Source of the DNA: Escherichia phage WaterSpirit
DNA length: 51,324 nt
Sequence record: OR896833.1
Reading direction: 5' to 3' (one strand)
Below, piece after piece: positions 14,745 through 42,977 of the stretch. Within the stretch, counting starts at the first letter, position 1; each line of letters starts with the position of its first letter. The position numbers and the translations under genes are program-made. The notes beneath the pieces are model-generated. The model did no database searches, had not been told where the DNA came from, and saw only the letters and a list, made by a program, of their open reading frames with translations.

Positions 14745-15475
14745 TGATTAGTGCAAAGATTAAACTTGAAATAATGCAGCACGTTAAAGACGAATACCCG
14801 CGCGAGGCGTGCGGGGTTATCACTCAAAAATCGCGGGTACAGAAATATCACCGCATAACAAATGTGCATGATGATCCAGAAAATCACTTTGAAATGGATA
14901 CGATGGAATACGTCGAAGCGTGCGACAGTGGCGAGCTTATTGCTATTGTGCATTCACACACTGGAGATGGGGCAAGTACAATCCCAAGTGCGCACGACAC
15001 ATGTATGTGTGACGAAACAGGCGTATCATGGGTTATCGTTTCCTGGCCGGAAGGCGATATGCGAATAATAGAGCCGGAAACACGCCCACTGACTGGTCGC
15101 CCATGGTCGCTTGGTTCTTATGATTGCTGGGGGCTTGTTATGGCCTGGCACAAAGAGAATGGCGTAGAACTGAACGACTTCCGAAAGCCTTACGAATGGT
15201 GGAAGCCTGAATACGGCGAGAATCTATATGAGGAAAACTATCTGAAAGAGGGGTTCATACCAACCAATCAGGATCCGAAGGCAGGCGACATGGTGATTTT
15301 TCAGCTATCATCGCCAGTCTGGAATCACGCCGGAATATACTTAGGCAACAACCAGCTATTGCATCACGCTTTTGGTAAGCTATCAAAAATTGATCTGTAT
15401 TCAGGCTGGTATCAGGAACATGCGGTAATGGTATGTAGGCATAAGGATCTAAAATATGACATTGAAAACAATTAA
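14744..15475 (+). CDS. Tail assembly protein K-like (JAB/MPN + NlpC/P60-like)
   Basis: 243 aa; HSHTGDGASTIPSAHD metal-binding-like motif and Cys/His residues; position after L. Confidence 0.7.
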   Translation: MISAKIKLEIMQHVKDEYPREACGVITQKSRVQKYHRITNVHDDPENHFEMDTMEYVEACDSGELIAIVHSHTGDGASTIPSAHDTCMCDETGVSWVIVSWPEGDMRIIEPETRPLTGRPWSLGSYDCWGLVMAWHKENGVELNDFRKPYEWWKPEYGENLYEENYLKEGFIPTNQDPKAGDMVIFQLSSPVWNHAGIYLGNNQLLHHAFGKLSKIDLYSGWYQEHAVMVCRHKDLKYDIENN

Positions 15476-16135: not shown

Positions 16136-19100
16136 ATGGCTAAAAATATTATAACTGGCAGTAAGGGTGGGTCGAAAAAACCTTACGTGCCTAAAGAGCT
16201 TGAAGATAACCTGATTTCAATAAACAAAATTAAAATCCTGCTTGCCGTATCCGATGGTGAGTGTGACGCGGATTTCTCATTACGTGATCTGTATCTTGAT
16301 GATGTTCCGGTTATCGCTGACGACGGAACTGTAAACTACCCAGGCGTTAAAGCAGAGTTTAGGCCAGGAACGCAGGATCAGGAATACATTCAGGGTTTTA
16401 CTGACACGTCAAACGAGGTGATCATCAATCGAGATTTGACTACAAATACGCCATATGTTTTGTCGGTAACGAATAAGACGCTTTCCGCAATACGCATCAA
16501 AATGCTAATGCCAGTGGGTATTAAGCAGGAGGATAACGGCGACTTGGTGGGCGTTACCGTTACATATGCAGTTGATATGGCGGTTGATGGTGATTCATAC
16601 AAAGAAGTAATGATCGACACCATTAACGGCAAGACGCGCACCGGATACGACCGTAGCCGACGCATTGACTTGCCGAAATTCAATGAGCGTGTTTTGCTTC
16701 GCGTTCGCCGCGTTACGCCTGACAGCACAACGTCGAAGGTTACAGACCTGATCCGCATACAGAGTTACGCCGAGGTAATTGATGCAAAATTCCGTTACCC
16801 TCTGACTGGGCTTGTTTACGTCGAGTTTGACAGCGAACTGTTCCCTAACCAGATCCCTAACATTTCAATTAAAAAGAAATGGAAGTTGATTCAGGTTCCC
16901 AGCAATTACGATCCTGTATCTCGTCGGTATTCTGGAACATGGGACGGAACATTTAAAAAAGCGTGGTCAAATAATCCGGCATGGGTTCTTTACGATTTGG
17001 TTACTAATCAGCGTTATGGACTTGATCAACGAGAATTGGGAATACAGATCGACAAGTGGAGTCTATACGAGGCTGGGGTGTATTGTGATCAGATGGTTCC
17101 AGATGGCAAGGGAGGAACAGAGCCGCGCTACCTATGCGATATGGTGATTCAAAGCCAGATTGAGGCTTATCAGCTTATTCGTGACATTTGCTCAATCTTC
17201 CGAGGAATGACTTTTTGGAATGGCGAGAGCTTGTCTGTAGTGGTGGATAAACCGCGCGAGCCATCATACATCTTTACAAACGACAACGTAATTAATGGAG
17301 ATTTTCAGTACACGAGCGCCAGCGAAAAGAGCATGTACACTCAATGCAACGTTACGTTTGACGATGAGCAAAACATGTATCAACAGGACGTTGAGGGCGT
17401 ATTTGACACTGAGGCGGCGTTACGTTTTGGCTACAATCCAACAAGTATCACGGCGATTGGTTGTACCCGTCGAAGCGAAGCGAATCGACGCGGACGCTGG
17501 ATACTGAAAACCAACCTGCGCAGCCAAACGGTAAACTTTGCCACCGGGCTGGAAGGGATGATCCCATCTATCGGTGACGTTATCGCGATTTCTGATAACT
17601 TCCTGAGCAGCAACTTAACGCTCAACCTATCAGGGCGCGTAATGGAAGTTTCCGGCTTGCAGGTATTCGTTCCGTTTAAGATTGACGCTAGACCAGGTGA
17701 TTTCATTATCATCAACAGACCGGACGGAAAACCAGTTAAGCGCACAATCTCAAAAGTCAGCGCGGACGGAAAAACCATTGAGTTAAACGTAGGGTTCGGA
17801 TTCGACGTAAAACCGGACACCGTATTTGCAATCGACCGAACAGACCTTGCGTTGCAACAGTACGTTGTAACAGGAATCAGCAAGGGTGACACTGAGGAAG
17901 AATTTACCTACTCGATTACGGCGGTTGAATACGATCCTAACAAATACGACGAAATTGATTATGGCGTAAACATTGATGATCGTCCGATCTCAATCGTGCA
18001 GCCGGACATCATGCAAGCACCGGAAAATGTTCAGGTGTCATCATACTCCCGTGTTGTCCAGGGTGTTAGCGTTGAGACGATGGTTGTGTCGTGGGATAAA
18101 GTGCCTTATGCGTCACTGTATGAAATGCAATGGCGAAAAGGTGATGGCAACTGGCTAAATACGCCGCGCACAGCGAACAAAGAGACGGAAGTAGAAGGAA
18201 TTTATTCAGGGAACTATCAAGTAAGGGTCAGATCTGTTTCAGCTTCCGGCAGTACATCAGCATGGTCGAAGATTGCAACAGCTTCCCTGACTGGTAAAGT
18301 TGGCGAGCCAGGCGCGCCAGTTAACTTAACCGCATCAGATAATGAAGTTTTCGGCATTCGTATTAAATGGGGCATGCCAGAAGGAAGCGGAGACACGGCC
18401 TACATTGAGCTTCACCAGTCGCCAGACGGAACGGTTGAAAACTCAAGCCTGTTAACGCTGATCCCATACCCGCAATATGAATACTGGCACAGTACACTAC
18501 CAGCGGGTCAAGTTGTCTGGTATAGAATCCGCAGCGTTGACAGAATCGGCAACGTTTCTAGCTGGACTGATTTTGTTCGTGGCATGGCATCAGATGATGT
18601 TGAATCTGTTTTAGGAGATATTCTTGATAAGATTTTTGATAGCGAAGCAGGGCAAGAAATCAAGGAGAACGCCATCGAAAGCGCGAACAAGATCAAAGAC
18701 CAGGCGCAGGCAATAATCCAGAACGCTTTGGCGATTGACGCTAACTTGAAATGGACGCGAGTACAGAACGGAAAGCGAAAGGCTGAATATGGTCATGCTG
18801 TTCAGTTGATCGCAAATGAGACTGAGGCGCGAGTAACTCAAATCGAAGAATTGAGGGCTTCAATTGATGGCGAGATAACATCAAGCATCAAGACAGTGCA
18901 GGAGGCAATCGCCACTGAATCAGAGACACGAGCAACTCAAATTCAGCAGCTTGATTCTAAATTCACAAAAGAAATTGACGGCGTGCGAAAGGATACTTCT
19001 GCAAGCATTAGCGATGTAAGGCAGACAATCACTAACGAGTCAGAAGCGCGAGCGCAAGCGGTACAACAGCTTGATGCAAAATTCACCAAAGAGATTAACG

Positions 19101-19714
19101 ATCTCAATGATGCAATCAAGGTTGACGTTGAGGCCAGCATTTCCGAAGTGAGACAAGCTATCGCCAACGAGGAGGAAGCGCGAGTACAAGCTGATCAGGC
19201 ATTAACAGCACGATTTGGAGACGTTGAATCTGCATTGGTTGAAAAGTTGGATTCTTGGGCGAGCGTTGATTCAGTTGGTGCTAAGTACGCTATGAAACTT
19301 GGCCTTACTTACAAAGGACAGCAGTACAGCGCAGGAATGGTAATGCAGCTTTCGCAGGGTTCATCCGGTCTTATCTCGCAAATTTTGTTTGATGCTAACA
19401 GGTTCGCCATTATGACTAGCTCTACTGGAGGGACTTTCACTTTGCCTTTCGTGGTTGAGAATAATCAGGTTTTCATTAATAGTCTTTTGGTGAAGAACGG
19501 ATCAATCACTAATGCGATGATTGGTAATGTGATTCAGTCAAACAACTTTGTTCAAAACCAGCAAGGATGGAGGCTTGATAAAAACGGAATCTTTGAGAAT
19601 TACGGATCAACGACAGGAGAAGGAGCTACTAAATTCACCAATGAGGGATTGAAGGTAAAAGATGCAAACGGAGTATTGAGGGTTGAAGTCGGAAGGATTA
19701 CCGGAAGCTGGTAA
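16136..19714 (+). CDS. Host specificity / central tail fibre protein J-like
   Basis: 1192 aa; size, position after I, internal ~40-aa tandem repeats near C-terminal third. Confidence 0.9.
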   Translation: MAKNIITGSKGGSKKPYVPKELEDNLISINKIKILLAVSDGECDADFSLRDLYLDDVPVIADDGTVNYPGVKAEFRPGTQDQEYIQGFTDTSNEVIINRDLTTNTPYVLSVTNKTLSAIRIKMLMPVGIKQEDNGDLVGVTVTYAVDMAVDGDSYKEVMIDTINGKTRTGYDRSRRIDLPKFNERVLLRVRRVTPDSTTSKVTDLIRIQSYAEVIDAKFRYPLTGLVYVEFDSELFPNQIPNISIKKKWKLIQVPSNYDPVSRRYSGTWDGTFKKAWSNNPAWVLYDLVTNQRYGLDQRELGIQIDKWSLYEAGVYCDQMVPDGKGGTEPRYLCDMVIQSQIEAYQLIRDICSIFRGMTFWNGESLSVVVDKPREPSYIFTNDNVINGDFQYTSASEKSMYTQCNVTFDDEQNMYQQDVEGVFDTEAALRFGYNPTSITAIGCTRRSEANRRGRWILKTNLRSQTVNFATGLEGMIPSIGDVIAISDNFLSSNLTLNLSGRVMEVSGLQVFVPFKIDARPGDFIIINRPDGKPVKRTISKVSADGKTIELNVGFGFDVKPDTVFAIDRTDLALQQYVVTGISKGDTEEEFTYSITAVEYDPNKYDEIDYGVNIDDRPISIVQPDIMQAPENVQVSSYSRVVQGVSVETMVVSWDKVPYASLYEMQWRKGDGNWLNTPRTANKETEVEGIYSGNYQVRVRSVSASGSTSAWSKIATASLTGKVGEPGAPVNLTASDNEVFGIRIKWGMPEGSGDTAYIELHQSPDGTVENSSLLTLIPYPQYEYWHSTLPAGQVVWYRIRSVDRIGNVSSWTDFVRGMASDDVESVLGDILDKIFDSEAGQEIKENAIESANKIKDQAQAIIQNALAIDANLKWTRVQNGKRKAEYGHAVQLIANETEARVTQIEELRASIDGEITSSIKTVQEAIATESETRATQIQQLDSKFTKEIDGVRKDTSASISDVRQTITNESEARAQAVQQLDAKFTKEINDLNDAIKVDVEASISEVRQAIANEEEARVQADQALTARFGDVESALVEKLDSWASVDSVGAKYAMKLGLTYKGQQYSAGMVMQLSQGSSGLISQILFDANRFAIMTSSTGGTFTLPFVVENNQVFINSLLVKNGSITNAMIGNVIQSNNFVQNQQGWRLDKNGIFENYGSTTGEGATKFTNEGLKVKDANGVLRVEVGRITGSW

Positions 19715-20357: not shown

Positions 20358-20636
20358 TCACCCCCAAAAAGTATATATATATCTTGAATCAGATCCAGAA
20401 AGTCCACTCCATGTAACGGTGTCGCCACTTACTCCTAAGCTTGGTGCGCCAGGGTCGCCACCGCGCCAGGAATTCATGCCAACATATATTGCTTTCAATG
20501 ATTTACCTGGCGGCCTGTTTTGGTAAGTCTTGCTACCTGATGGCTGAGTGAATTTATCAAGAAAGAAAACAGGCGTTAAAAGTCCTGTAACTTCCCTTCC
20601 TCGATCGTCATATATTGCATAACCATATTGCGCCAT
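20358..20636 (-). CDS. Hypothetical protein (92 aa), Gly/Ser-rich
   Basis: ATG overlaps lipoprotein stop (TAATG coupling); RBS GAGGTG. Confidence 0.3.
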   Translation of the reverse strand: MAQYGYAIYDDRGREVTGLLTPVFFLDKFTQPSGSKTYQNRPPGKSLKAIYVGMNSWRGGDPGAPSLGVSGDTVTWSGLSGSDSRYIYTFWG

Positions 20637-20905
20637 TAATTACACCTCAAATCAATAAATTTACTTTCATTTTGCCAGCGGTTGATAAATTTAACTTCTT
20701 TATTGTCAACGCTCAACCTGTATTGCTTTTGGCTGAATCTGTTTTCGCGTACTGCATTAATTTTGACTTCATGGAATCCGTTAACAGGGAATGTTTTAAC
20801 GTTAAATTTTGCCGTGCAATCGATCTTTTTGAAGCCGCCAGTAGGCGACGATGCGCATCCGGTCAGAGCGGCTACGGTGGCGATAACTGCGATTAATTTT
20901 TTCAT
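20636..20905 (-). CDS. Lipoprotein, putative superinfection-exclusion (Cor/Llp-like by position)
   Basis: 89 aa; signal peptide with lipobox LTGC; strong RBS AAGGAGA; first gene of operon next to tail fibre genes. Confidence 0.55.
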   Translation of the reverse strand: MKKLIAVIATVAALTGCASSPTGGFKKIDCTAKFNVKTFPVNGFHEVKINAVRENRFSQKQYRLSVDNKEVKFINRWQNESKFIDLRCN

Positions 20906-20936
20906 CTTTGTATCTCCTTAGTTGTTGTTGTTTCCA

Positions 20937-20978
20937 ACTATACACGATCTTGAACATCGAGTTTAGCAAAAAGTGCTA
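20937..20978 (-). promoter_or_regulatory. 18-bp element (TAGCACTTTTTGCTAAAC) + 18-nt spacer + TATAGT, upstream of lipoprotein operon
   Basis: Minus-sense read of 20961-20978 matches the conserved element; TATAGT at 20937-20942 (minus sense). Confidence 0.4.
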
Positions 20979-21360
20979 TTTGTTTTTTCTGTTCTCGCTT
21001 GTTATCAAATTCACACCTCCTTAATTTTAGCGCAAAACTTAAACACCAACTGGACAAACAATAGACAGTAAAATCATCTATATACATAAAAAATAAAGAG
21101 TTTATTTATCTATGTATCTATATTTGTTTTTATTTGTTCTCTGTGTTTCATTGGGTTGTGGTGTGTAGCATGTTTGGTGAGTGTATTGATTTATGTAATT
21201 ACAGATGCTCACTGGGTATTGCATATGTATGTATAAAGCTGAGTAGATACGCGAACGCGAGAACAGAAAAATAACAACCTTGATATTCAATCACTTATAA
21301 TCAGATTTTGTTCTTAAGCCCAAAAGAAGCGTTTAGAAAACAGAAAAAACAAATCACCTA

Positions 21361-21388
21361 TTGACTAAACGCATCAAATAGCTAAAAT
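21361..21388 (+). promoter_or_regulatory. Sigma70-like early promoter (TTGACT-16-TAAAAT)
   Basis: Direct read; homologous to the promoter at 42457-42484. Confidence 0.55.
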
Positions 21389-21417
21389 GCAGGCATACCA
21401 ACCAATGAGGGCTAATC

Positions 21418-22479
21418 ATGAATAAATTTATGGCTTACACCAGCGCAGAAATGAGCAACGAGCTTTATCACGATCCAGAAGCATGGACGGCTGAATATGT
21501 TAGCGGTTCAAGTCTGGCAGAGATTTACAGCACTTGCCCTGCTGCCTGGAAGTTCAAGCCGCGCGACGATAAGAGCAAGGCGCTCGTTTTCGGTACGCAG
21601 TCGCATACCAACTTCGAAAGCAAGGAGCTATTTGATAAAACTTACCGCCGTGCGCCAGCGCCGGAAGACTTCAAAGAGTTGATCACAAGCCAAACGGCAT
21701 TGGCTGCAAAGCTGAAATCTTTTGGCCTGAAAGGGACAAGCGGAAAGACTTACCCCGACCTTATCAAAATGATGGTTGATTGTGGCGAAGACCTTAACAT
21801 CATGTGGTTAATCGACATGATCGCAGAAAGCCAGGCCAGAGCCGACGGCGTACAGTTAATCGACGCGAAAGATTACGATGCTTGCGTTGCAATGCGCCAG
21901 GTTTTGGAATCAATACCGGAGCATAACGCTTGTATGAACAGCACAACGGCGCAGCGTGAATTATCGCTGTTCGGTGAAATTAACGGCGTAAAAGTTAAAG
22001 TGCGATGCGACCATGTAGACGTAGTGAAAAACGTCACTGCAACGCTGATTGATGGTTATGATGAAAAAGGTCAGCCCATTTGTCGTGATATTGTTTATCC
22101 AGAAGCAGTGGTGATCACAGACTACAAAACAACAATGAGCGCAAATCCTATGGAGTTTATGCGACTGGCTTACAACCACGGTTATTATTTGAAAATGGCA
22201 CTGCAACATGATTTATTCAGGAAGGCATATCCAGATGAGAAGCGACCTGTAGTTATGCGCCTGTTAGCACAGGAGAAGAAGGAGCCTTATCTACCGCTGG
22301 CTTTCCGCATGAACAGCGAGCAATTGAAAATAGGCCGAGTCCAGTATGTTAGCGTGATCCAACAGTTTGCTATGTGCCAGCAGCATGACGTATGGCCTGC
22401 GTATTCAAACGGTGAGCCGGAAGTTTGCTTGGATACGCCGGAATTTGTGCGCCGACAGTTCAAGCAGTATTTGATTTAA
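21418..22479 (+). CDS. Recombination exonuclease (PD-(D/E)xK-type, RecE/YqaJ-like)
   Basis: 353 aa; ITDYKT motif region typical of this nuclease fold; followed by Erf-like and SSB genes. Confidence 0.55.
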   Translation: MNKFMAYTSAEMSNELYHDPEAWTAEYVSGSSLAEIYSTCPAAWKFKPRDDKSKALVFGTQSHTNFESKELFDKTYRRAPAPEDFKELITSQTALAAKLKSFGLKGTSGKTYPDLIKMMVDCGEDLNIMWLIDMIAESQARADGVQLIDAKDYDACVAMRQVLESIPEHNACMNSTTAQRELSLFGEINGVKVKVRCDHVDVVKNVTATLIDGYDEKGQPICRDIVYPEAVVITDYKTTMSANPMEFMRLAYNHGYYLKMALQHDLFRKAYPDEKRPVVMRLLAQEKKEPYLPLAFRMNSEQLKIGRVQYVSVIQQFAMCQQHDVWPAYSNGEPEVCLDTPEFVRRQFKQYLI

Positions 22480-22560: not shown

Positions 22561-22845
22561 ATGAATCAGCAAGAAAACCAGGCTTACCAGGCAACCATCA
22601 ACCATGTTAAACGTTTCGTTGATAAAGTGACGATTGCTACACACGAATTGCTGTACCCGCTTAACATCAACGAAAGCGATGAAATGCGCCAGTACATCAA
22701 AGACGTTCTAACCGCCGCAAACAACCTGATTCTTGAAGCGACTCTCACCAAAAAGAGCGCGGAACATGTAAAAATGATGGACGCAGCAGCAGAAGATTAC
22801 ATGCGCCATATGACCGAACGTAGCAACGAACAGGAGGCCAAATAA
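22561..22845 (+). CDS. Hypothetical protein (94 aa)
   Basis: ORF with RBS GGAAG; stop overlaps next start. Confidence 0.4.
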
Positions 22846-25015: not shown

Positions 25016-26979
25016 TATACAATTTCCCCCAATTGATGATCTGTTAGTGCCTTGTGCCAGATTCTCAAGTTTCTTATATGACCAAAAAGGTGTCTATCCC
25101 CGACTGCTGTCTGACCTGCAATTCTTATCGTAGTTGCCCCTCCTGTATTTTCCCACGTTGTCTTCGCTGGATTTGACAAAATGCCATTGTAACCAGCTTG
25201 GAAACTGCCATCTTTTTTTATCCTATATGCGGCCACGATCTTTTTTGGTGCTTGTCCAGGTGGAAATGATATTGGAGAGCCAAATTGAACATATGGCGTA
25301 CCTAGACTTTTTGGCACATTCCTGAATGCAAAAACAAAGGCACTATCCTTTGTCTTAAATCCACTTATATCATATATGCGCGGAGCGGCATTTGGAGCAA
25401 CAGACCAGTTTTTATTAACTTCAACAAGGCATGTTAAAGGTTTATCAAACATATTGTTTATGCACGGCATAGTCACCATGTCACTCGCCCTTGTTGCCGG
25501 AGTTCCATCAGTGATAACCAGAGACGAAGCAGATGATCCGTTTTCAACTTGGGCGGTAGCTATGGTCATAAATTGACCTGATGTAATATCCTGGCCTGCC
25601 CTTGCTATCATCTCAACGTGAGCATACATCTTTATATCTTCTGGTGCTCTATATGTACCCTGGAATAATACCCATCCACCTGATTCCTGCTTCACATCAT
25701 AAGTCAACTTATCTCCTCCAGTCACATCAAGAGTGACAAGATCTAACATCACGTCAGTTATAAATGTGTTTTCCTGCCCATCAGGATTTAGCTTGGAGAA
25801 TAGCAATCTTAACCTAACTGGTGAAGAATATTCCTCGCCGATTCTTGCGCGTATTGAGATAGTGCCATACTCACCATTCGCAACATCCACTACGCGAGAT
25901 GTACCAGTTGAAATTGCTGTGATCGGGCCAGTATCTTGACTTTCTTTATAAGTGAATTTAGCGGAAGTTATACCAAATTCATCTGTATAATCATCGGATA
26001 CGTCCAGTCTGTTTACGTTTCTATTCCATTTGTTCGGTGAATTGCTATTTATGAAGTTGTTTGTTCTCTGCCCTTCAATCAGCAATCCATCTCTTTCAAA
26101 ACGTGGTTCATCAATTTCTGCAACTGTAAAAACACCTGATTTGTTAATGTAAGTAGCGGTTGATGCTCGTTTAAACTTAACTATCTTGTCACCTGGCATC
26201 GTGATCTCATCGTCACCTATAACAATCTTTTTATATGACGGAGAGAATCCGGTAATCATATCCAGGGAGTCATTAAATGGTATCCACACGTCCGGCAACG
26301 GCTGCAATACATCTTTGTAAGGTTCTGCGGCCTGCTTTGCGTATTCCTCTGCTTTGTCGCGAGCATCCTCTGCGCCAGCCTTTGCAGTGTTCGCATCGTC
26401 ACGCGCAGTTTCAGCTCCTTTTCTTGCTGTTTCAGCGCCAGTCTTTGCAGTGTTTGCAGCGTCGCGCGCGGATTCAGCAGCAGCCTTTGCAGTATCAGCA
26501 CCTTTCTTGCTATTCTCTGCATTTGTTGCTCTTGTCTTCGCGTTATTCTCGCTAGTTTTAGCTGCCTTCTGGCTTGCTGCGGCTGCGTCAGCATTTGTCT
26601 TTACGTCTTCCTGAATCTTCTGTAGCTTATCCCAATCAAAATCCTTGATGATCTCAATAAATCCAGCAAGCTCCGACTCCTTTCCCATGTAGTAGCGCAA
26701 TGTTTCAGCTACGTCTTGCGCCAGGCCATCAACAGTTAACGAGTCATGAAGCAAGATTATGTAGTCTGAACGGGGAACAACAGCACCACCAGTGGTGATT
26801 GCTCGAATGCTAGTATCGTTGACCACTTCGGTGATAACTGCGGCCTGTAGCGGCTGAGTCAGAAAAATAATGGTTGCGCCGGAACGGATCAGCGTTAACT
26901 GCTCACGCCAGTTCGTACCGTAGCCAGTTATATAGCCTTGAGCGTCCATTGACGCTTGACCTTTGCGATAAATTGCCAT
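25015..26979 (-). CDS. Tail fibre protein
   Basis: 654 aa from ATG 26979 (RBS AGGAG, 9-nt spacer); Ala/Thr/Lys-rich repeat region near N-terminus, beta-rich C-terminal region. Confidence 0.55.
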   Translation of the reverse strand: MAIYRKGQASMDAQGYITGYGTNWREQLTLIRSGATIIFLTQPLQAAVITEVVNDTSIRAITTGGAVVPRSDYIILLHDSLTVDGLAQDVAETLRYYMGKESELAGFIEIIKDFDWDKLQKIQEDVKTNADAAAASQKAAKTSENNAKTRATNAENSKKGADTAKAAAESARDAANTAKTGAETARKGAETARDDANTAKAGAEDARDKAEEYAKQAAEPYKDVLQPLPDVWIPFNDSLDMITGFSPSYKKIVIGDDEITMPGDKIVKFKRASTATYINKSGVFTVAEIDEPRFERDGLLIEGQRTNNFINSNSPNKWNRNVNRLDVSDDYTDEFGITSAKFTYKESQDTGPITAISTGTSRVVDVANGEYGTISIRARIGEEYSSPVRLRLLFSKLNPDGQENTFITDVMLDLVTLDVTGGDKLTYDVKQESGGWVLFQGTYRAPEDIKMYAHVEMIARAGQDITSGQFMTIATAQVENGSSASSLVITDGTPATRASDMVTMPCINNMFDKPLTCLVEVNKNWSVAPNAAPRIYDISGFKTKDSAFVFAFRNVPKSLGTPYVQFGSPISFPPGQAPKKIVAAYRIKKDGSFQAGYNGILSNPAKTTWENTGGATTIRIAGQTAVGDRHLFGHIRNLRIWHKALTDHQLGEIV

Positions 26980-27108: not shown

Positions 27109-28020
27109 TTATAAAAGCGATTCAGGCTTGTAAAGTTTTTTCTCAATGCCATTTTTGAAGTTTCCACCAATCGGCAGCATAACATCAAGGTTTCTTTCAT
27201 CGGCGGCGATTATTACATCACGATCATCTTTATGGCATACGACGCGCATCTTTCGATTTCCTTTGTATCTGTGGGCAACCATCTCAAGATTGTAGTTATT
27301 GTAGCACGTCCATACTTCTTGCCCCGTCGCAAGGTGCACATGCTGAGCATTTACCCAGTCAGTGCACAAATAGATCGTCTTATCTGTGCTACCAGTTACA
27401 ACAACCGATCCGCGCGTGTAATCCTTTGCCAGAAATGATTTATCGCCTTCCTCGGTGATAAAGAGAATATTGCACATCTCATCATCCACGCCGTCTTCGT
27501 GAACAAGTCGGCACGGAAGCGCGTGAATGTATCGCCCATCCTTAACGCCGCAATCGTAATGACCATCATCAGGCGGGTAGATTCCTTCAAATACGCTTAA
27601 AGGAGTGCGATCAAATTTAAGCGTCTTTGCCATTACTCTTTCACAGCATTCATGGCTGGCCTGCTTCCCGAAATTGTAGCCGGACGAGCGCGACGCTATC
27701 TTGTTAGCCTTTGCCACCACCTCGACCGGAACGAGGTTGAGCCAGTCGCCCAGCGTGTTAATTGCTTCGCTATAGCTTTCCCCGCGCAATCGCATAAACA
27801 ACCCGATCCCGCTATCGTTACCGCATACGTTGCAGATATTGCCGCCATCACCTTTCTTTGCGAGTTGGTTAGTCCAACGAGCGCGATCTTTGCCACCACA
27901 ATACAGGCACGGTTGATGCTTGCCATTAAAGAAAGATTGAGGCGCATTGCATAGTTTCATTAATGCAGTTTGCCACATTCCAAGCATACGCGGTAAAACT
28001 TCGTCTTTGTCGTAGTGCAT
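27109..28020 (-). CDS. DNA primase (zinc-ribbon + TOPRIM-like)
   Basis: 303 aa from ATG 28020 (RBS GAGGT); CxxC...CxxC zinc-binding motif followed by acidic TOPRIM-like segment. Confidence 0.55.
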   Translation of the reverse strand: MHYDKDEVLPRMLGMWQTALMKLCNAPQSFFNGKHQPCLYCGGKDRARWTNQLAKKGDGGNICNVCGNDSGIGLFMRLRGESYSEAINTLGDWLNLVPVEVVAKANKIASRSSGYNFGKQASHECCERVMAKTLKFDRTPLSVFEGIYPPDDGHYDCGVKDGRYIHALPCRLVHEDGVDDEMCNILFITEEGDKSFLAKDYTRGSVVVTGSTDKTIYLCTDWVNAQHVHLATGQEVWTCYNNYNLEMVAHRYKGNRKMRVVCHKDDRDVIIAADERNLDVMLPIGGNFKNGIEKKLYKPESLL

Positions 28021-28077
28021 TGTAAACCTCATACAAGAAAAAGCCTGGCAATGATAAACCACGCCAGGCAATTAACT

Positions 28078-28554
28078 TTAGCTATTTGTGCTTTTTGGTT
28101 CTTTGTAAAATATTCCGCCAGGTTCATAATCGCGCATCGTTACCACTCGCAACATCTCACGACGTTCGCAACGTGTAACAAGCGGCTTACCGTTTGAGTC
28201 GAATTTTAGATCCGGGCGACAGAATGATGCGCGATATCCTTTACAGCCATTATATTTGTAGTCATTATGCACGCGTTGTGCGCCCATCGCTGAAATCATC
28301 CCGCGCTTGCGCCACATATTTACAGTTTGCTGGGATACTCCCAATCGACGAGCCATATTTGCCACACCTCCGAAATACTCCAGAAGAATATCAAGGCGAG
28401 CGGTCAGTCCGGCTTTTACTTCTTCTTTCAGTATGTAATATCCGGTGCGCGGCTTGCGTGGCTTCTTGTCCTTGCCGCGTCGCGTTCCGTTGTTGCCGTT
28501 CAATGTTCTCTTGTCAATCTCACCAGTATAGGCCGCGATTCGCTTTTCTTTCAT
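28078..28554 (-). CDS. HTH DNA-binding protein (158 aa), basic N-terminus
   Basis: From ATG 28554 (RBS GAGGTG); helix-turn-helix-like segment VANMARRLGVSQQTVNMWRKRGMIS. Confidence 0.45.
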   Translation of the reverse strand: MKEKRIAAYTGEIDKRTLNGNNGTRRGKDKKPRKPRTGYYILKEEVKAGLTARLDILLEYFGGVANMARRLGVSQQTVNMWRKRGMISAMGAQRVHNDYKYNGCKGYRASFCRPDLKFDSNGKPLVTRCERREMLRVVTMRDYEPGGIFYKEPKSTNS

Positions 28555-28565
28555 TTTGCACCTCA

Positions 28566-28607
28566 TAGCACTTTTTGTTAAAAATAGCTTTTGAACGTGT
28601 GTATTAT
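28566..28607 (+). promoter_or_regulatory. 18-bp element + 18-nt spacer + TATTAT, upstream of helicase operon
   Basis: TAGCACTTTTTGTTAAAAA at 28566-28584; -10-like at 28602-28607. Confidence 0.4.
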
Positions 28608-28639
28608 ACACGCCTAATGGCTTATTAAAAGAGACAGTT

Positions 28640-30679
28640 ATGATTCCTAATATTGAAAAGCAGATAGCCGCTTTAGGTGAAGAAACGATCCGAAAAATAC
28701 AGGAGCGTTTCACGGTTGGCGATATTGTGCCATATCCTTACCAGGTTGTTGCATACACTGAGATCGCAAAGCGTATGCGCAATTATCAGCATCCATTCTT
28801 TATTAAAGCGTCAGTATCAGCAGGCAAAACATTGATGTTTGCAATGGTTGCGGCGCAATGCCGGAAAATGGGCTTGAAAATGATGGTATTGGCGCGACAG
28901 GCTGAAATTGTGGATCAGGATTCAGAGGAGATCACAAATCTCGGCGTGCCAAATTCCATTTATTGTGCCGGACTGAAAACAAAAAGCGCATACTTTCCTA
29001 TTGTGGTTGGTTCTGAGGGTACTGTAGTTAATGGCTTGTTTAAGTCACTTGGCGACTACGTGCCGCACGTTATCGGGATTGACGAGTGTCATCAAGTGGA
29101 TTGGGAAGACCTTGCCGACGCGATAGAGAATGATGAATCACTCATTCAAATGACGACAAAAAAGGGCGAGAAAGTAAAGAATCCAGATTACGACATCACG
29201 AACGCCCATGAGTGTGATGAATTCCTGATTGGGGAAGATGGCTTGCCAATGGAAGGAACAGGCCGGACACAGTACACCGTTATCATCATGGAAATGATGC
29301 GTCGTTGCAGGAAGGAATACGGTCACGAATTGCGTATATTTGGCATGACTGGATCGGAATTTCGCGGCGTGGTTCCAATCCTGGTTGAAGATAAAAAACA
29401 GAAAGGATTTTGGCGAGAACAGGTTACGAACATAGATACCAACTACCTGATCAAATTCGGTTCGGTCGTGCCAACTAATTTTGGCGACGTTGGCGATCTC
29501 GGTTATGACCTGTCAGAGTTCGAGGCATCCAGCGAGGACGGCGTTGCAGATTTTGACGCTAAAACGCTTCGCAAAATGGAACAGAAGATCCATGAAGAAG
29601 CCACCATGACTAAGCGCATCATGGAGAAGGTGCACGAAATATGTAAAAACCGTAACGGCGTATTGGTGACATGTGCAGGTGAAAGACATTGTAAAGAGGC
29701 GGCGGCAGCGTTGCCACCTGGCACGACTTACCGGATCATCACTGGCAAGACTGGCGACAACCAGCGTAAAGAATGGCTGAAAGAAGCATACGAGGGTAAA
29801 GTAAAATACATCTTCCAGGTGCAGGCGCTAACCACTGGCGTTAATGTGCCGTTTTGGGATACGTCGGTTATTCTGCGCAAGATTGGATCTCTTACGTTGC
29901 TGATTCAGCTTTTAGGTCGCGGTATGCGACTTCTTAAAAAGTGGCACAAAGAGCAGGGCTTTCATAAAGACGATCATCTTGTTTTGGATTTTTCCGGCAC
30001 GATGGACGAGTTAGGGGAGCTTTATTTCGATCCGATACTGGAGCAGGCACAGCATCAGAAGAGATTCAAAAACGGAAAAGATCCTAAGCCTTGCCCTGTA
30101 TGCAAGACGTTAAACAGCTATTACGCTCGACGTTGTATGCACGTAGACGAAAACGGAAACAGATGCGAATGGTTTTTCAAATACAAGATATGCGAGGATC
30201 GGATAGACCAGCGCACCAGAAAGGTTATCCATCACGGCTGTGGTACTAAGAATGATATTGCGGCCAGGGTGTGCAGGCATTGCGATGTGTCGCTTATTGA
30301 CCCTAACGAAAAGTTAAGCGGTAAGCACTACACAAAAAACGACTGGTTCCAGGTAAAATCTTTCTCGGTTGACATGACGAAAAATCAGAAAGGGATCATC
30401 TTCAATTATGAGCTTTCCGACGGCATCGACACATTCAGGGCGCGAGAGATATTTTTCCCTGAATCAGAAAGCCAGATTTGCAGGGATAAATGGCGTAGAG
30501 TCGCGTTAAAGCATATACCGGATCGCCGTATTGCTGGCATGGTGGCAAGCTATCGCAATGCAAGAAAAATCATGCAATATGCGAATCACATCATGCAGCC
30601 GTCGATGGTAACTCACCGCAAGACGAGTAAGGGCGAAGATAATCTATACAAGAAGGAGTTTAATTATGGCAATGACTGA
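28640..30679 (+). CDS. ATP-dependent DNA helicase (superfamily 2-like) with C-terminal Cys-rich zinc-finger region
   Basis: 679 aa; Walker A SAGKT, DECH box (GIDECHQ), multiple CxxC pairs in C-terminal third. Confidence 0.7.
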   Translation: MIPNIEKQIAALGEETIRKIQERFTVGDIVPYPYQVVAYTEIAKRMRNYQHPFFIKASVSAGKTLMFAMVAAQCRKMGLKMMVLARQAEIVDQDSEEITNLGVPNSIYCAGLKTKSAYFPIVVGSEGTVVNGLFKSLGDYVPHVIGIDECHQVDWEDLADAIENDESLIQMTTKKGEKVKNPDYDITNAHECDEFLIGEDGLPMEGTGRTQYTVIIMEMMRRCRKEYGHELRIFGMTGSEFRGVVPILVEDKKQKGFWREQVTNIDTNYLIKFGSVVPTNFGDVGDLGYDLSEFEASSEDGVADFDAKTLRKMEQKIHEEATMTKRIMEKVHEICKNRNGVLVTCAGERHCKEAAAALPPGTTYRIITGKTGDNQRKEWLKEAYEGKVKYIFQVQALTTGVNVPFWDTSVILRKIGSLTLLIQLLGRGMRLLKKWHKEQGFHKDDHLVLDFSGTMDELGELYFDPILEQAQHQKRFKNGKDPKPCPVCKTLNSYYARRCMHVDENGNRCEWFFKYKICEDRIDQRTRKVIHHGCGTKNDIAARVCRHCDVSLIDPNEKLSGKHYTKNDWFQVKSFSVDMTKNQKGIIFNYELSDGIDTFRAREIFFPESESQICRDKWRRVALKHIPDRRIAGMVASYRNARKIMQYANHIMQPSMVTHRKTSKGEDNLYKKEFNYGND

Positions 30680-34052: not shown

Positions 34053-34122
34053 ATTTATTTTTTCAGCACAATGTTTAAAATGCAATCATCACTATTGACA
34101 TTTGAATAAAGAGGATCTAAAA

Positions 34123-34335
34123 ATGAAAGATTTTTTGAACGCTGCAACGTCAGGCACGGGTGGTGCATCAATCACTGGAGCAGTAACAGGACAAACTGCA
34201 ATTGCAATTGCCAGCTTCGTATTGATGGCTATTTTCGGCGTGTGGGGCGCTTATCTGCGGTGGCGTGATAGTAAAGCCTTCCAGAAGGCGCTTGATAGTG
34301 GTGACTTTAAAAAAGCAATTGAAATTAGGGGGTAA
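34123..34335 (+). CDS. Holin (single predicted TMD)
   Basis: 70 aa from ATG 34123 (RBS AGAGGA); hydrophobic segment IAIASFVLMAIFGVWGAYL, charged C-terminus; immediately upstream of endolysin. Confidence 0.5.
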   Translation: MKDFLNAATSGTGGASITGAVTGQTAIAIASFVLMAIFGVWGAYLRWRDSKAFQKALDSGDFKKAIEIRG

Positions 34336-35716: not shown

Positions 35717-36035
35717 TCATTTCTCCTATCCGTGCCATATCCCTTATCCATTCATTTTGCATTCCCTCAAAGGTGTAAAATTCGAATCCGAACGGCCTAC
35801 GGGCAGATCCGTCAATGCACCAAAATCTACCTTCAACGCCATCCAGATAACCAGCGCCCATCATTCTTGCGCAAAACTCTTTCGATAGCATGGAAGCGAA
35901 CATGCGCGGGGTGAATCCGGCCTGCTTCGCCAGGCGTTCACATTCTCTGTGCTGATAGATAAATTTTGCAATGTGCTGACGAGTAAACCAGTCGTAAGAC
36001 TCACACCATCTGTAGAGATCCAGAATGAACATCAT
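35640..36035 (-). CDS. Hypothetical protein (131 aa)
   Basis: ATG overlaps stop of upstream ATPase gene. Confidence 0.35.
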   Translation of the reverse strand: MMFILDLYRWCESYDWFTRQHIAKFIYQHRECERLAKQAGFTPRMFASMLSKEFCARMMGAGYLDGVEGRFWCIDGSARRPFGFEFYTFEGMQNEWIRDMARIGEMSDDELFGAKSNRQDIEILRRKFNIT

Positions 36036-37618
36036 TACCCCATTAACACAGGATTCACAAAAATAACACCATTAATAACACAAACGTAGTTTTTTTGCTC
36101 AAGCATCGGAAGCAGTTGCGATTCTATGCGCTTCATCACGCCAGCTTGCCCCAGGAAAGGTTTTACCTTGCGTGCTGCCTCATACAAAGCGCGGACATTC
36201 AATACGCCTTTATTTGCCTTACCGTGGCGGGTGATTAACTCAATCAGTTTTGACATCTCGGCATCATCACCAGCATAGCCGGACGCGTTCGCCGCGCTGA
36301 TATACGTTTTGCTCAATTCATGGAACATCAGCAAGGCTTCTTGCATCGTGTCAACGTCAATCTCTCTAGACTTTTGCGGGTATCCAGCAGGATTAAACCA
36401 ATTGCGTATCACATGCAGAACGGCAGCAATGCGGATCACCTGCTTATCCATTTTACCCAGCGCACCGCGTAGCATCGTATGCGAATACTTTCCGCCGTCG
36501 GCAAGATGCGGTTCCATATCCTGGCGTGCAATGTTCAGCACGCGCATTGCAGAACGGCTAACTTTCAGAGAAACGTTAATTTCGCTCATAATGTTATGCA
36601 CCAACTGAAAGTATTGCGCTTTCAATTCACCGTCTACTGGTTCGTAAGTTGAATCACCATTCTCATCAACAAATACACGCGTACCGATTAACGGCTGTTC
36701 GCGCACCAGTAGAAAACGCTCGCTTACACCGATGCCACGAGATCCTGCATCCATGATGCCATTAATGGTTTCATCCTGGGCGATAACACTCATACATCCA
36801 AGCGCAAAAAAACTCATGTTATTGTCTGCATTAGAACGGGCGATAGAAACATGGCCGTGATCCCATGCTTTTAACACAAGTTCGCTGTTAGTTTTGCGCT
36901 CGCTATTCGCGTAAGTCAGGCCAAGCAGACTGTTAATACTGGTTGCTTCATCAGAAATAACCGCGAAGTTTCCTTGTCTGTTATTTATCTTTGCTAATCC
37001 CTCTGGTGTGGTGTCGGAGACAGGGAAAACAACATCGCAAAGTTTGCTTAGTTTTTCTTCCAGATCTTCTTTTTCTTGATATAGAATCTCCATATCTGCG
37101 CCGGAGCGTTCGCTTTTCATCTCCTTTAGTAGTCCGGCAAGTTTTGCCTGTATCTTTTTTCGATCTTTCTTGCGTTGCTCGTTGATGCGATCAACCTCTG
37201 CAACCATAGGAGCAATAGCCAGACTGTTAATCGCGGATTTACCTGCCGACGGAGGCTGGCTTGTCACAACGTAAAGCGCGGTCGGCTGATCTGTTCCGTG
37301 GTAGTCAACTGTGAATCGACCAAGCATAGCGGCAGAAATACATCCGATAAAGTGCATGTAGGCCGATGATTCAGGGAATTGAACAGATCTCGCAAGATTG
37401 CGCGCCAGCTTACCAACTACATCAACATCATTCCCAAGTGAAATAACAGGGTAGCGGTCGTTACCGCCGTTAATATCTTCCACCTGGCCCCAATAGCTTG
37501 AAGATTGGCGGTATCCGTTGGCCTGAATGGATACACGAACAGGGGAAATACCTTGAGATTCGGCGGTTTCAATGATTTGTTTCGGTGATAACTGACTTGT
37601 TTCAAATGAAAAATTCAT
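36035..37618 (-). CDS. P-loop ATPase-like replication-associated protein (possibly DUF3987-type)
   Basis: 527 aa; Walker A-like PPSAGKS; strong RBS AGGAG; in early-left operon. Confidence 0.4.
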   Translation of the reverse strand: MNFSFETSQLSPKQIIETAESQGISPVRVSIQANGYRQSSSYWGQVEDINGGNDRYPVISLGNDVDVVGKLARNLARSVQFPESSAYMHFIGCISAAMLGRFTVDYHGTDQPTALYVVTSQPPSAGKSAINSLAIAPMVAEVDRINEQRKKDRKKIQAKLAGLLKEMKSERSGADMEILYQEKEDLEEKLSKLCDVVFPVSDTTPEGLAKINNRQGNFAVISDEATSINSLLGLTYANSERKTNSELVLKAWDHGHVSIARSNADNNMSFFALGCMSVIAQDETINGIMDAGSRGIGVSERFLLVREQPLIGTRVFVDENGDSTYEPVDGELKAQYFQLVHNIMSEINVSLKVSRSAMRVLNIARQDMEPHLADGGKYSHTMLRGALGKMDKQVIRIAAVLHVIRNWFNPAGYPQKSREIDVDTMQEALLMFHELSKTYISAANASGYAGDDAEMSKLIELITRHGKANKGVLNVRALYEAARKVKPFLGQAGVMKRIESQLLPMLEQKNYVCVINGVIFVNPVLMG

Positions 37619-41281: not shown

Positions 41282-41511
41282 ACATCATTGATAAAATCAG
41301 CGCGGCCTTTAATGTTGCTGATGTGGAAAGTCTTTTCAGCGTACAGGCCATCACCTTCAATCACGATCATTACGCGAGTCGGTTTATTCACGGGCGCACA
41401 TGAAAAGAGTGGGCGCACCGGAAGAAATTTAGTAGTCACATCCAGGTTAGCCCTGGCCGCCCTGCAAAATGCCTCCGCCAGATCTAAATCATTTTCGGTA
41501 ATCACCGCCAT
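41245..41511 (-). CDS. Hypothetical protein (88 aa)
   Basis: ORF in early-left operon. Confidence 0.3.
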   Translation of the reverse strand: MAVITENDLDLAEAFCRAARANLDVTTKFLPVRPLFSCAPVNKPTRVMIVIEGDGLYAEKTFHISNIKGRADFINDVCLLQEKKKCLM

Positions 41512-41783
41512 TACTTCTTGATCTCCTCACTGATAAATTTCAGCACCCGGCGCAAGAAAACTTCGTTGTTGATAGTCGCTGGCAATTCTTCTTTCACCTC
41601 TTGCGGCAGATAGATATTGCCGTGCCAGGTCAAGCAATCGTAGTTGATACGATAAGAGCAAAGCCACTCGCAATCGTTATCTGCTTCCCAAATGCAGAGT
41701 TGCAGAACATCGCCTAAGTTCTCAACAGTCAGATCCAGACCGTGACGCTTAGCGAAATTGAAAGTGGTTTTGCTGATGTTCAT
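41511..41783 (-). CDS. Hypothetical protein (90 aa), first gene of early-left operon
   Basis: RBS GGAGATAGCAAATG. Confidence 0.35.
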   Translation of the reverse strand: MNISKTTFNFAKRHGLDLTVENLGDVLQLCIWEADNDCEWLCSYRINYDCLTWHGNIYLPQEVKEELPATINNEVFLRRVLKFISEEIKK

Positions 41784-41818
41784 TTGCTATCTCCTGAGCG
41801 GTTTGTTTCGATGTGTGT

Positions 41819-41861
41819 AATGTACCCGATCAGAATGATTCGGTTTTAACAAAAAGTGCTA
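41819..41861 (-). promoter_or_regulatory. 18-bp element + 19-nt spacer + TACATT (minus sense), upstream of early-left operon
   Basis: Minus-sense read of 41844-41861. Confidence 0.4.
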
Positions 41862-42456
41862 TTCCATGCCTGGTGCATTATTCCAGTTATTCCACGCTCA
41901 AAGAATAATCGGAATAAGTTGCTTAACTGTTAAATTGGTTAGTGTGATATGCGTTTACCAGGTTTTTCGATTGATTGCGTGTGTGATTAATCATGTGTGG
42001 CGGGGTGTATAGAAAGTAGTTGCCCTCTCGCCTCGTCCTGGTGGCGTCAGCAAACAGAAGCTGTTTATTTTGTTCGCGCGTGTTCGCGTTTCAGGGAGGC
42101 ATGTTTCCGCGCTGTTTTTCAATGTATTGCGAACGCAAAAAACAAAATAAATCCCTTATAATACATTGAAAATAAAGAATATTTATTTATGTGTATATTT
42201 ATGTGTTATTTCTTGTTAGCGTTGTTAGTGTGATATGTGATGGTTGCGGTGTCGCTTTGTTGGTATATATATGGATAGTTGCGCGCCTGGTGGAATGAGT
42301 ATGTATATATACTTTTATTGCGATATTGCGCTAACAGCGCGAACAGAAAGAAAACAAGCGGTAAAAACTTATTGAAAATCATGTGTTTATGTAGCGATTC
42401 TCTCAAAACGTCGGCAACGCGAACAGGCCGCGAACGTTATACGGACAAAATAAACA

Positions 42457-42484
42457 TTGACACGCATGAAATAGCACTTATAAT
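42457..42484 (+). promoter_or_regulatory. Near-consensus sigma70 early promoter (TTGACA-16-TATAAT)
   Basis: Direct read; spacer contains AAATAGCAC; drives early-right gene block. Confidence 0.65.
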
Positions 42485-42515
42485 GGCCTGCAACTGACCA
42501 ACAGGAGGAATGACA

Positions 42516-42977
42516 ATGAGTCAGAAAACATCGAAAGACTATTGCGACTGGTTGCGAGAGCTTGGGCGACGCCTTGCAAGCGGCGAGATTGTAGAGCATA
42601 AAATGTCAGTTCTCGACCTTGCCGGAATGTTAAACGGCGACGACTACTACAAGGTGACAAAGAATCAGGCATACAGCCGCACAATAATCAACCGTGTGCC
42701 GGAAGTGAAAGCGGTTGGAAAGGTGCGAATCAGAACGGAAGAAACGGAAGACGATAAGTTTTACGTTTTCAGCCTGAATCGCGACGTTAAGCGCAAGGTG
42801 ATCACGAGCGAAGACTTGCCAGCCGTCCAGGCAAAGGCGGTAGAAAAGTTCGCCGCTCGCATTCTTGCATCAATGCCAAACGTTACCGATATGCAAGGCG
42901 ATAAACTGGCTGGAGCTTGTGAAGGAATAAGCCGCTACCAGGAAATGATCCGCAATCTTGTTAACGAGGAGAAATGA
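42516..42977 (+). CDS. Hypothetical early protein (153 aa)
   Basis: RBS AGGAGG 7 nt upstream; first gene after the strong promoter. Confidence 0.4.
   Translation: MSQKTSKDYCDWLRELGRRLASGEIVEHKMSVLDLAGMLNGDDYYKVTKNQAYSRTIINRVPEVKAVGKVRIRTEETEDDKFYVFSLNRDVKRKVITSEDLPAVQAKAVEKFAARILASMPNVTDMQGDKLAGACEGISRYQEMIRNLVNEEK

Follow-up and report, generated by a model that had tools for sequence, protein, structure and literature searches.

Two paralogous promoter-linked intergenic units in Escherichia phage WaterSpirit and related Drexlerviridae, candidate replication origins of T1-like phages

The sequence analyzed here, the 51,324-nt stretch deposited for Escherichia phage WaterSpirit (record OR896833.1), is the complete genome of a T1-like siphovirus. 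Its two long noncoding regions, region 1 (20906-21417) and region 2 (41784-42509), carry homologous copies of a single unit of ~410 to 425 nt, in which short phased repeats flank an AT-rich core and the right end is formed by a sigma-70 promoter. We tentatively read this unit, with confidence a little short of even, as a fusion of an early promoter with a replication origin of the iteron-plus-DNA-unwinding-element type, which would be present twice per genome, as are oriL and oriR of phage SPP1.

The initial annotation of this sequence, made without database searches, described the two regions as sharing extended similarity and interpreted them as a duplicated control module. Both statements are borne out. 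The strings quoted in support are real, and a repeat search pairs 21082-21147 with 42161-42226 (66 nt, 71% identity). The best local alignment scores 53, compared with 22.0 ± 2.4 (maximum, 35) for 300 dinucleotide shuffles. When 20981-21392 and 42062-42488 are aligned globally, the score is 167, compared with 29.6 ± 8.0 (maximum, 57) for shuffled sequences (z = 17), and identity is 79% over 358 aligned columns, with 123 gap columns. The homologous unit extends beyond the span noted previously, from the left repeat cluster to the -10 hexamer, so that the paralogous part comprises the promoter and ~330 nt upstream of it.

The same paralogy is present in five further genomes of T1-family phages, and the duplication is kept across all Drexlerviridae genomes examined. 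These are WaterSpirit, T1, TLS, tonijn, AHP42, and BUCT556A, which represent four lineages (Tempevirinae, T1, Rogunavirus, and Webervirus). Regions 1 and 2 align significantly in each of the six, with local scores of 114 in tonijn (z = 34), 93 in BUCT556A (z = 31), 68 in AHP42 (z = 16), 66 in T1 (z = 14.5), and 63 in TLS (z = 15.7). Copies from Warwickvirus and Changchunvirus group according to their location in the genome, those of region 1 together and those of region 2 together; the clustering thus indicates that the duplication is old and predates both genera. Concerted evolution was considered and rejected: a likeness between the two copies as great as that to their orthologues is limited to TLS and T1, so that gene conversion is not demonstrated. 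TLS and Webervirus retain the unit although the genes on either side of region 1 run in the same direction there (in Webervirus, these are the immediately adjacent primase and exonuclease genes). Divergent transcription therefore is not intrinsic to it. The simplest history would be that an entire unit bearing two divergent promoters was duplicated and that, in region 2, the copy additionally carries a putative packaging segment and a second, outer leftward promoter.

A further property of the two copies is their meltability. When whole genomes were scanned with a nearest-neighbor measure of duplex stability in 60-bp and 100-bp windows, the two cores came out as the least and the second least stable windows of either size in 6 of 6 genomes (z = 4.1 to 5.9; Table 1), the third-ranked window having a z of at most 4.3. 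Thus, in all six genomes the repeats adjoin AT-rich DNA of exceptionally low duplex stability. The core sequence is 70 to 80% invariant among four Tempevirinae lineages, and the cores, together with the 21-nt repeat discussed below and the -35 region of the promoter, are the best conserved noncoding sequences of either region. In region 1, no conserved sigma-70 promoter was found reading into the core. A TATAAT without a -35 hexamer is present at the left edge of the core; it is kept in region 2 as well as in T1 and TLS region 1 but is not conserved in Warwickvirus region 1. Breaks within these cores are seen in several public assemblies: the start and end of the Jahat_MG145 record correspond to WaterSpirit positions 42143/42144, the BEC3 record starts in the region 1 core (~21117), and the ityhuna record ends in the region 2 core (~42203). 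These record ends look like assembly breaks at repeated AT-rich sequence, not true genome ends.

Multiple alignments and motif maps show the same order of elements in both copies. The left half consists of box L, a conserved CGGCGT...GCGC block, an A-rich run ending in TATA(A)TACAT, the AT-rich core, and box M. It is followed by ~100 nt of GT-rich DNA, which is variable and includes another small AT patch, and then by box R, a block resembling the IHF consensus, and AACA/GAAC words beside the -35 hexamer, after which comes the sigma-70 promoter. The GT-rich spacer of unit 1 is rich in indels that are not divisible by three and is therefore noncoding. Many indels lie between the two sides of the unit, yet the GCGNGAACA box of box L and that of box R start 267 nt apart in unit 1 and 266 nt apart in unit 2; box R has the pattern ..AACA GCGNGAACA GAAAAATAACA in both. 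The 15-mer GCGAGAACAGAAAAA occurs in WaterSpirit solely as the inverted pair 20984-20998/21257-21271. The IHF-like block is conserved in position and matches the consensus exactly in region 2 of tonijn and region 1 of W011D; exact matches are sporadic, that in the region 1 core of tonijn is not general, and conservation of position is confined to the block that separates box R from the promoter. Inspection by eye revealed no consistent matches to DnaA or LexA boxes. A Chi cluster was likewise rejected, as CCTGGTGG occurs twice in region 2, but 1-mismatch Chi sequences are not enriched and exact Chi is absent from the genome.

The repeats are specific for these loci and have a defined phasing and orientation, with triplets spaced by 9 to 10 nt on one side and inverted copies opposite. 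Paired TGTTN-N4-5-YGTT motifs have 15 matches in the WaterSpirit genome, 11 of them inside the two regions, which make up 2.4% of the genome (0.36 expected; 0.40 ± 0.69, with a maximum of 4, in dinucleotide-shuffled regions); for tonijn, the two regions contain 9 of the 20. The 10-to-11-bp periodicity of TGTT/AACA reaches its genome-wide maximum at the two loci in WaterSpirit, tonijn, and TLS. No third repeat cluster was found elsewhere in the genome, and the phasing of A-tracts, a proxy for curvature, is unremarkable at either locus. In WaterSpirit, tonijn, and TLS, which represent two genera of Tempevirinae, both copies have an identical repeat map: L pair, core, M, about 110 nt, and the inverted R pair.

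The repeat word itself varies by lineage but is common to both copies of each genome. It is GAACA in Tempevirinae (GTGAAC in TLS), GTTACA/TGTAAC in T1 (9 of 24 genome copies; TAACAC is also found), ATACGC in the Rogunavirus AHP42 (8 of 18), and GTAAGAT in the Webervirus BUCT556A (12 of 17). With a host factor, one motif should be kept throughout; this variation fits sites co-evolving with a phage-encoded protein and suggests that such a protein binds the repeats. Candidate binders are the winged-helix C-terminal domain of the phage DUF3987 helicase and a Cro-like helix-turn-helix (HTH) protein.

The rightward promoters are as the initial annotation gave them: TTGACT (21361-21366) and TAAAAT (21383-21388) in region 1, and TTGACA (42457-42462) and TATAAT (42479-42484) in region 2, both on the plus strand and with 16-nt spacers. 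The former matches the consensus at 10 of 12 positions; the latter matches it at 12 of 12 and is the only perfect consensus promoter in the genome. The motif ACGCAT(C/G)AAATAGC, also reported previously, is present in both spacers and has exact matches only at 21369-21382 and 42462-42475, with compensating 3-nt indels holding the spacer length at 16. The promoter keeps its position in T1 region 1 and among the Tempevirinae genomes examined, except for the truncated region 1 extract of W011D. The TLS paper (PMC11447400) lists only three predicted sigma-70 promoters; two of these, one upstream of gene 1 (P01) and one upstream of the exonuclease gene (P51), are the equivalents of the two WaterSpirit promoters. 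Given their canonical hexamers and this TLS assignment, both promoters are predicted to be early. Literature searches yielded no transcript data for T1-like phages.

One of the few canonical sigma-70 promoters invariably forms the end of the unit, hence the reading of the unit as an early promoter coupled to an origin. The earlier suggestion that the AT-rich repeats could mark an origin of replication has gained real but circumstantial support from the meltability and from the phased, lineage-specific inverted repeats. The combination of phased inverted repeats, the most meltable DNA of the genome, co-variation of the repeat words, two copies, and a phage-encoded helicase and primase would fit the signature of iterons with a DNA-unwinding element. 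Since the phage encodes its own helicase and primase, it should need a specific loading site. According to the SU57 paper (PMC7718038) and the TLS paper (PMC11447400), no origin has been found in T1-like phages.

Under the promoter-origin reading, host RNA polymerase would fire the strong promoter as the DNA enters the cell, and a phage-encoded protein, through the winged-helix domain of the helicase or as the HTH protein, would bind the phased repeats on either side of the core. Negative supercoiling behind the outgoing transcription, possibly together with an IHF bend, would open the AT core, where the phage helicase and primase would then be loaded. A more specific and broader version, which we consider rather doubtful, would hold for Drexlerviridae in general: two paralogous origins, on each of which an MCM-like winged-helix helicase is assembled on inverted phased 5-bp repeats around an unwinding element, each fused to one of the genome's very few constitutive sigma-70 promoters, with early transcription and firing coupled and with the repeats co-evolving with the helicase or initiator in each subfamily.

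The DUF3987 protein is probably an MCM-like replicative helicase, as judged from its predicted structure. An AlphaFold2 model built with 30 homologues (mean predicted local distance difference test score, 88; predicted template modeling [TM] score, 0.85) shows an AAA+ core followed by a C-terminal winged helix (residues ~450 to 527, helix-strand-helix-helix-strand-strand). In Foldseek searches against PDB, the best matches of the model are MCM2-7 and archaeal MCM (E values down to 9e-5, probability 1.0, TM scores of 0.33 to 0.38), with weaker matches to Orc1/Cdc6, the African swine fever virus primase-helicase, adeno-associated virus Rep, and the SaPI5 primase-helicase. A sequence search against PDB gave nothing significant, so that only the fold search was informative. 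DUF3987 proteins have been described as replicative helicases of mobile elements, and a related one was shown to be a 5'-3' helicase (PMC11724360). In addition to the proteins in Table 1, WaterSpirit encodes further replication proteins, namely, SSB, Erf, and exonuclease VIII.

Table 1. Features of the two units, their surroundings, and the replication genes of WaterSpirit, with the least stable 60-bp windows of five related genomes
Feature	Position	Strand	Description
Leftward promoter, region 1	20937-20981	-	AAATAGCACTTTTTGCTAAACT (20981-20960), 17-nt spacer, -10-like TATAGT (20942-20937)
Box L, unit 1	20981-21004	+	Three TGTT(C/A) at 20981, 20990, and 21000; 9-10 nt spacing
15-mer in box L, unit 1	20984-20998	-	GCGAGAACAGAAAAA; exact inverted copy of 21257-21271
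AT-rich core, unit 1	21053-21152		Least stable 100-bp window genome-wide; 60-bp minimum 21076-21135
Box M, unit 1	21125-21148	+	TGTT at 21125, 21135, and 21144; orientation of box L; directly right of core
GT-rich spacer, unit 1	21149-21249	+	Variable; second small AT patch CATATGTATGTATAAA at about 21223-21238
Box R, unit 1	21250-21278	+	CGCGAAC GCGAGAACA GAAAAATAACAAC; inverted TGTTC copies
IHF-consensus-like block, unit 1	21285-21297	+	ATTCAATCACTTA; 1 mismatch to WATCAANNNNTTR
Promoter-proximal AACA pair, unit 1	21339-21351	+	Within 21334-21388
Leftward promoter, region 2	41819-41864	-	21-nt repeat (41864-41843), 18-nt spacer, -10-like TACATT (41824-41819)
Region-2-specific segment	41865-42061		~200 nt; absent from region 1; poorly conserved; GT-rich
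Decayed remnant of 21-nt repeat	42045-42064		Right end of region-2-specific segment
Box L, unit 2	42062-42085	+	TGTT at 42062, 42071, and 42081; TGTTTATTTTGTTCGCGCGTGTTC
AT-rich core, unit 2	42137-42236		Second least stable 100-bp window; 60-bp minimum 42144-42203; conserved TATAATACATTGAAAATAAAGA
Box M, unit 2	42204-42227	+	TGTTA at 42204, 42214, and 42223
Box R, unit 2	42328-42359	+	GCGCTAACA GCGCGAACA GAAAGAAAACAAGC; inverted copies
IHF-consensus-like block, unit 2	42377-42389	+	AATCATGTGTTTA; 1 mismatch; positional homologue of 21285-21297
Promoter-proximal GAAC boxes, unit 2	42417-42436	+	Within 42417-42484
Primase	27109-28071		DnaG/T7 type, with zinc ribbon
HTH protein	28078-28554		Cro/YdaS-like; just upstream of primase
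Helicase	28640-30679		DEAD/ResIII type (superfamily 2)
DUF3987 helicase	36035-37618	-	
Least stable 60-bp windows, T1	214-273, 30010-30069		
Least stable 60-bp windows, tonijn	36396-36455, 15217-15276		
Least stable 60-bp windows, TLS	216-275, 28823-28882		
Least stable 60-bp windows, AHP42 (Rogunavirus)	42351-42410, 22658-22717		
Least stable 60-bp windows, BUCT556A (Webervirus)	34089-34148, 19029-19088		

Several observations weigh against an origin. The repeats are degenerate and only 5 to 9 bp long, compared with 17 to 22 bp for classical iterons, and their symmetric arrangement is less clear in T1 and AHP42. A solely regulatory role is possible for long AT-rich stretches between genes upstream of strong phage promoters, the repeats nearest the -35 hexamer sit at activator or UP-element positions, and a promoter-centered function explains equally well why the unit always ends in a promoter. 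Two origins per genome are unusual, and the second copy could have another role, as proposed for oriR of SPP1. The restriction mapping of pac in TLS is coarse, which leaves room for the region 2 copy to take part in packaging. GC/AT skew along the WaterSpirit genome carries no origin signal; because it tracks gene orientation, we count it as uninformative on origins.

The strongest alternative, which we consider unlikely but far from negligible, is that the unit is a purely transcriptional control region whose repeats are operator or enhancer sites for a phage regulator, e.g., the Cro-like HTH protein. An IHF-bent complex would boost and later shut off the two main early promoters, and the AT core would be curved or UP-like DNA that plays no part in replication. 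Beyond the constant association with a promoter and the words abutting the -35 hexamer, this is favored by the conservation of the -35 hexamer and the 30 nt upstream, which are among the best conserved blocks, by the fixed position of the IHF-like block ~70 nt upstream of -35, and by the fact that two of the only three predicted sigma-70 promoters of TLS are these. In addition, the Warwickvirus spacer contains AAATAGC(AC), the first half of the 21-nt element, which might point to an early-to-middle switch, but this spacer element is absent from TLS and W011D. Nor does curvature find support, as A-tract phasing is not unusual at these loci, and the region of the regulator's own promoter (28555-28640) contains no such repeats. 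Moreover, ~330 nt of conserved upstream sequence, with repeats placed symmetrically around the most meltable site, exceeds the known needs of promoter control. The origin and transcriptional readings could both be true.

The leftward sides of both regions carry a promoter element of a different kind. The TLS report (German, Kropinski, Misra et al. 2024; PMC11447400) describes a 21-nt direct repeat, aaATAGCACnnnTTGnTAAAA, whose function is left there as an open question. The leftward promoters of WaterSpirit carry this repeat with 0 mismatches in either copy (20960-20981 and 41843-41864, both on the minus strand). The features of the Drexlerviridae repeat, i.e., its consensus, intergenic location, and orientation along transcription, are found on the leftward sides only; the rightward promoters contain just its AAATAGC(AC) part, in their spacers. 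WaterSpirit has 19 copies with at most 1 mismatch, for example, at positions 1566, 28565, 31082, 43239, 44852, 47041, and 48388 on the plus strand and 20979, 35522, 38366, 40278, 40778, and 41862 on the minus strand. We counted the copies, again with at most 1 mismatch, that are followed, exactly 17 to 18 nt past TAAAAN, by a -10-like hexamer (TAnnnT with at least 4 of 6 matches to TATAAT). This is the case for 15 of the 19 copies in WaterSpirit, 17 of 18 in TLS, 14 of 19 in T1, 17 of 20 in tonijn, and 9 of 13 in AHP42, compared with about 4% of random positions. Many copies also have CATCGA(C/A)AA past the -10. The 21-nt repeat therefore appears to behave as the upstream half of a phage-specific promoter class. 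Its variant ATAGCAcgaatTGCTA (with cgaat) is a perfect palindrome, TAGCA-N5-TGCTA, centered near -42, suggestive of an activator site.

Both promoter classes seem to be related, with spacer indels converting one into the other. In the rightward promoter of region 1, the upstream part can be aligned with the 21-nt repeat, TTGACT standing opposite TTGCTA. In the Klebsiella phage BUCT556A (Webervirus), the exonuclease promoter combines ATAGCAC and TTGACT with a 21-nt gap to TATACT, i.e., the geometry of the 21-nt class, whereas its homologue in T1 and Tempevirinae is the canonical TTGACT-16-TAnAAT. The 21-nt repeat also occurs in each arm of an 80-nt inverted repeat (32120-32199/35444-35523; 88% complementary, arms 3.2 kb apart), along with a GC-rich hairpin and a -10. 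The arms point into the plus-strand block from 32191 and the minus-strand genes from ~35512 and appear to be mirror-image promoter/terminator modules facing outward.

Another alternative, which we regard as improbable, is that the shared unit is a packaging signal, region 2 being pac and region 1 a second weak or cryptic terminase site. In its favor, coordinate 1 of the GenBank records of both T1 (terminal repeat 1-2800) and TLS falls in the region 2 equivalent, and several public records open in or beside the cores. However, these coordinates lie in the counterpart of the region-2-specific segment (T1, 48750-48836 plus 1-90; TLS, 49800-49902 plus 1-60), 130 to 220 nt to the left of the shared unit; region 1 lacks this segment, and record ends in the AT cores are more simply explained as assembly breaks. 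Thus, the first terminase cut, as placed in the T1 and TLS records, does not map to the shared unit. In the TLS paper (PMC11447400), the AGATTT with which the record opens is assigned as pac by its authors after restriction mapping, and virion DNA is described as giving a single submolar pac fragment. Region 1 therefore is not efficiently used for packaging. The region-2-specific segment contains repeats of the GATTG/TGATT type; GATGTGATTGTTGC occurs twice around coordinate 1 of T1 and TAGACCGATTGGTCTA twice just upstream of coordinate 1 of TLS, and both are candidates for sequences recognized by the terminase. Box L of T1 is abutted by a second leftward 21-nt repeat, of which WaterSpirit keeps only the decayed remnant. 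It is plausible that this segment is the pac site of WaterSpirit.

Still less probable, and effectively excluded, is that a small RNA or small protein is encoded here, the similarity being that of paralogous genes. The plus strand of region 2 folds better than shuffled sequences (z = -3.4), and there are minus-strand open reading frames of 62 and 66 codons, some public records annotating "hypothetical proteins" here. However, region 1 folds like shuffles on both strands (z of about -0.8), the RNAalifold consensus of eight homologues reaches only -2.1 kcal/mol, with only the inverted repeats pairing, and a search of the whole genome against Rfam at the gathering threshold gave no matches. The open reading frames (21102-21290 and 42206-42406) begin with TTG, are of low complexity, and show no relationship to one another, and the alignments contain many indels whose length is not a multiple of three. 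Chance likeness of two AT-rich, low-complexity intergenic regions (GC content of both, 33 to 40%) is negligible as an explanation, effectively excluded and, in our view, already refuted by alignment scores far above those of dinucleotide shuffles, by the independent presence of the paralogy in five other genomes, and by common blocks that contain the promoter spacer and GC-containing repeats.

The closest known arrangement is that of SPP1, a virulent pac siphovirus with two distant origins, oriL and oriR, each made up of repeats in direct orientation plus an AT-rich unwinding element; a single phage protein binds both, and one is situated within a lengthy intergenic stretch (PMC6316719). WaterSpirit likewise has two distant, similarly organized regions of repeats and AT-rich DNA per genome. 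There is no sequence or protein homology between the two systems, SPP1 using gp38, gp39, and the DnaB-type gp40. Further, oriL lies inside the initiator gene, whereas both WaterSpirit copies are intergenic and each is fused to a sigma-70 promoter. Unlike SPP1, WaterSpirit has 5-bp words phased at 9 to 10 bp in inverted arrays and an MCM-like helicase.

Satellite phage P4 has two separated cis regions, ori and crr, with short octamer repeats of the TGTTCACC type in both orientations. They are bound by the winged-helix C-terminal domain of its primase-helicase, the alpha protein, in which a primase is fused to a superfamily 3 helicase. The sequence TGTTCACC is present in box L of tonijn region 2, a likeness of repeat words that may be coincidental. 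In WaterSpirit, the primase and the MCM-like helicase are separate proteins, and no sequence similarity to P4 alpha was detected. In archaeal oriC, an AT-rich unwinding element is flanked by inverted origin recognition box elements and served by Orc1/Cdc6 and MCM. An AT-rich element between inverted repeats and an MCM-like fold with a C-terminal winged helix would make the phage arrangement analogous; however, the phage was not found to encode an Orc1/Cdc6 homologue, and TM scores in the Foldseek search are low (0.33 to 0.38). In the primary origin of T7 and in T4 oriF and oriG, a promoter and an AT-rich unwinding element act jointly, the promoter transcribing into the element, whereas the strong promoter of WaterSpirit points away from the AT-rich core.

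Region 1 lies between the gene for a Cor-like lipoprotein (20636-20905, minus strand) and that for exonuclease VIII (21418-22479, plus strand), the first of the rightward genes for exonuclease VIII, Erf, and SSB, which are downstream of its promoter. Region 2 is flanked by genes at 41511-41783 (minus strand) and 42510-42977 (plus strand). To its left is a leftward block of small genes that includes the DUF3987 helicase gene; to its right, its promoter precedes an operon of small genes from 42510, in a rightward block running toward terminase. The initial annotation was correct in placing both regions between divergent genes, but its left edge of region 2 (41864) has to be moved to 41784. In the annotated relatives tonijn and T1, the equivalents of regions 1 and 2 are the two longest intergenic regions.

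Over both regions, WaterSpirit is closest (98 to 99% identity) to Escherichia phages Jahat_MG145, BEBK14, and MatMar, the first of which is classified in Drexlerviridae, Tempevirinae, Warwickvirus. No copies of the unit were found in Escherichia coli genomes or plasmids, e.g., in satellites. Approximately 19 GenBank records (MG0656xx) labeled "Campylobacter phage," with Campylobacter jejuni as the host, are ordinary T1-like coliphage genomes, whose exonuclease is 93% identical to that of WaterSpirit. The host attribution looks wrong, with contamination or mislabeling the likely cause. Finally, tail or tail-fiber open reading frames contain in-frame, tandem or nearly tandem repeats of 63-nt units with 75% identity (26369-26494) and in-frame 59-nt repeat units that are 132 nt apart and 73% identical (19001-19191).

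Literature searches for transcriptomes and origin mapping of T1-like phages returned nothing relevant beyond the TLS and SU57 papers, and they gave no earlier account of how the two regions are paralogous, of the phased arrangement of repeats, of the stability ranking, or of the co-variation of repeat words. The prediction of promoters P01 and P51 and the 21-nt repeat were already known from the TLS paper (PMC11447400); its consulted sections treat P01 and P51 as separate predicted elements, with no mention of the paralogy of their upstream regions, the AT core, or the phased repeats. The two ~420-bp fragments are the first concrete candidates for the unmapped replication origin of the T1 type. 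With defined fragments, a repeat word for each subfamily, and two candidate binding proteins, the origin of T1 becomes directly testable.

T1 is one of the seven classical T phages. If the promoter-origin reading is true, the unit would provide an origin for the engineering of T1-like phages, which are common both as therapeutic phages and as contaminants, a defined loading site for an MCM-like helicase of a bacterial virus, and a case of coupling between promoter and origin. If it is purely regulatory, it would still be the main early control element of the family.

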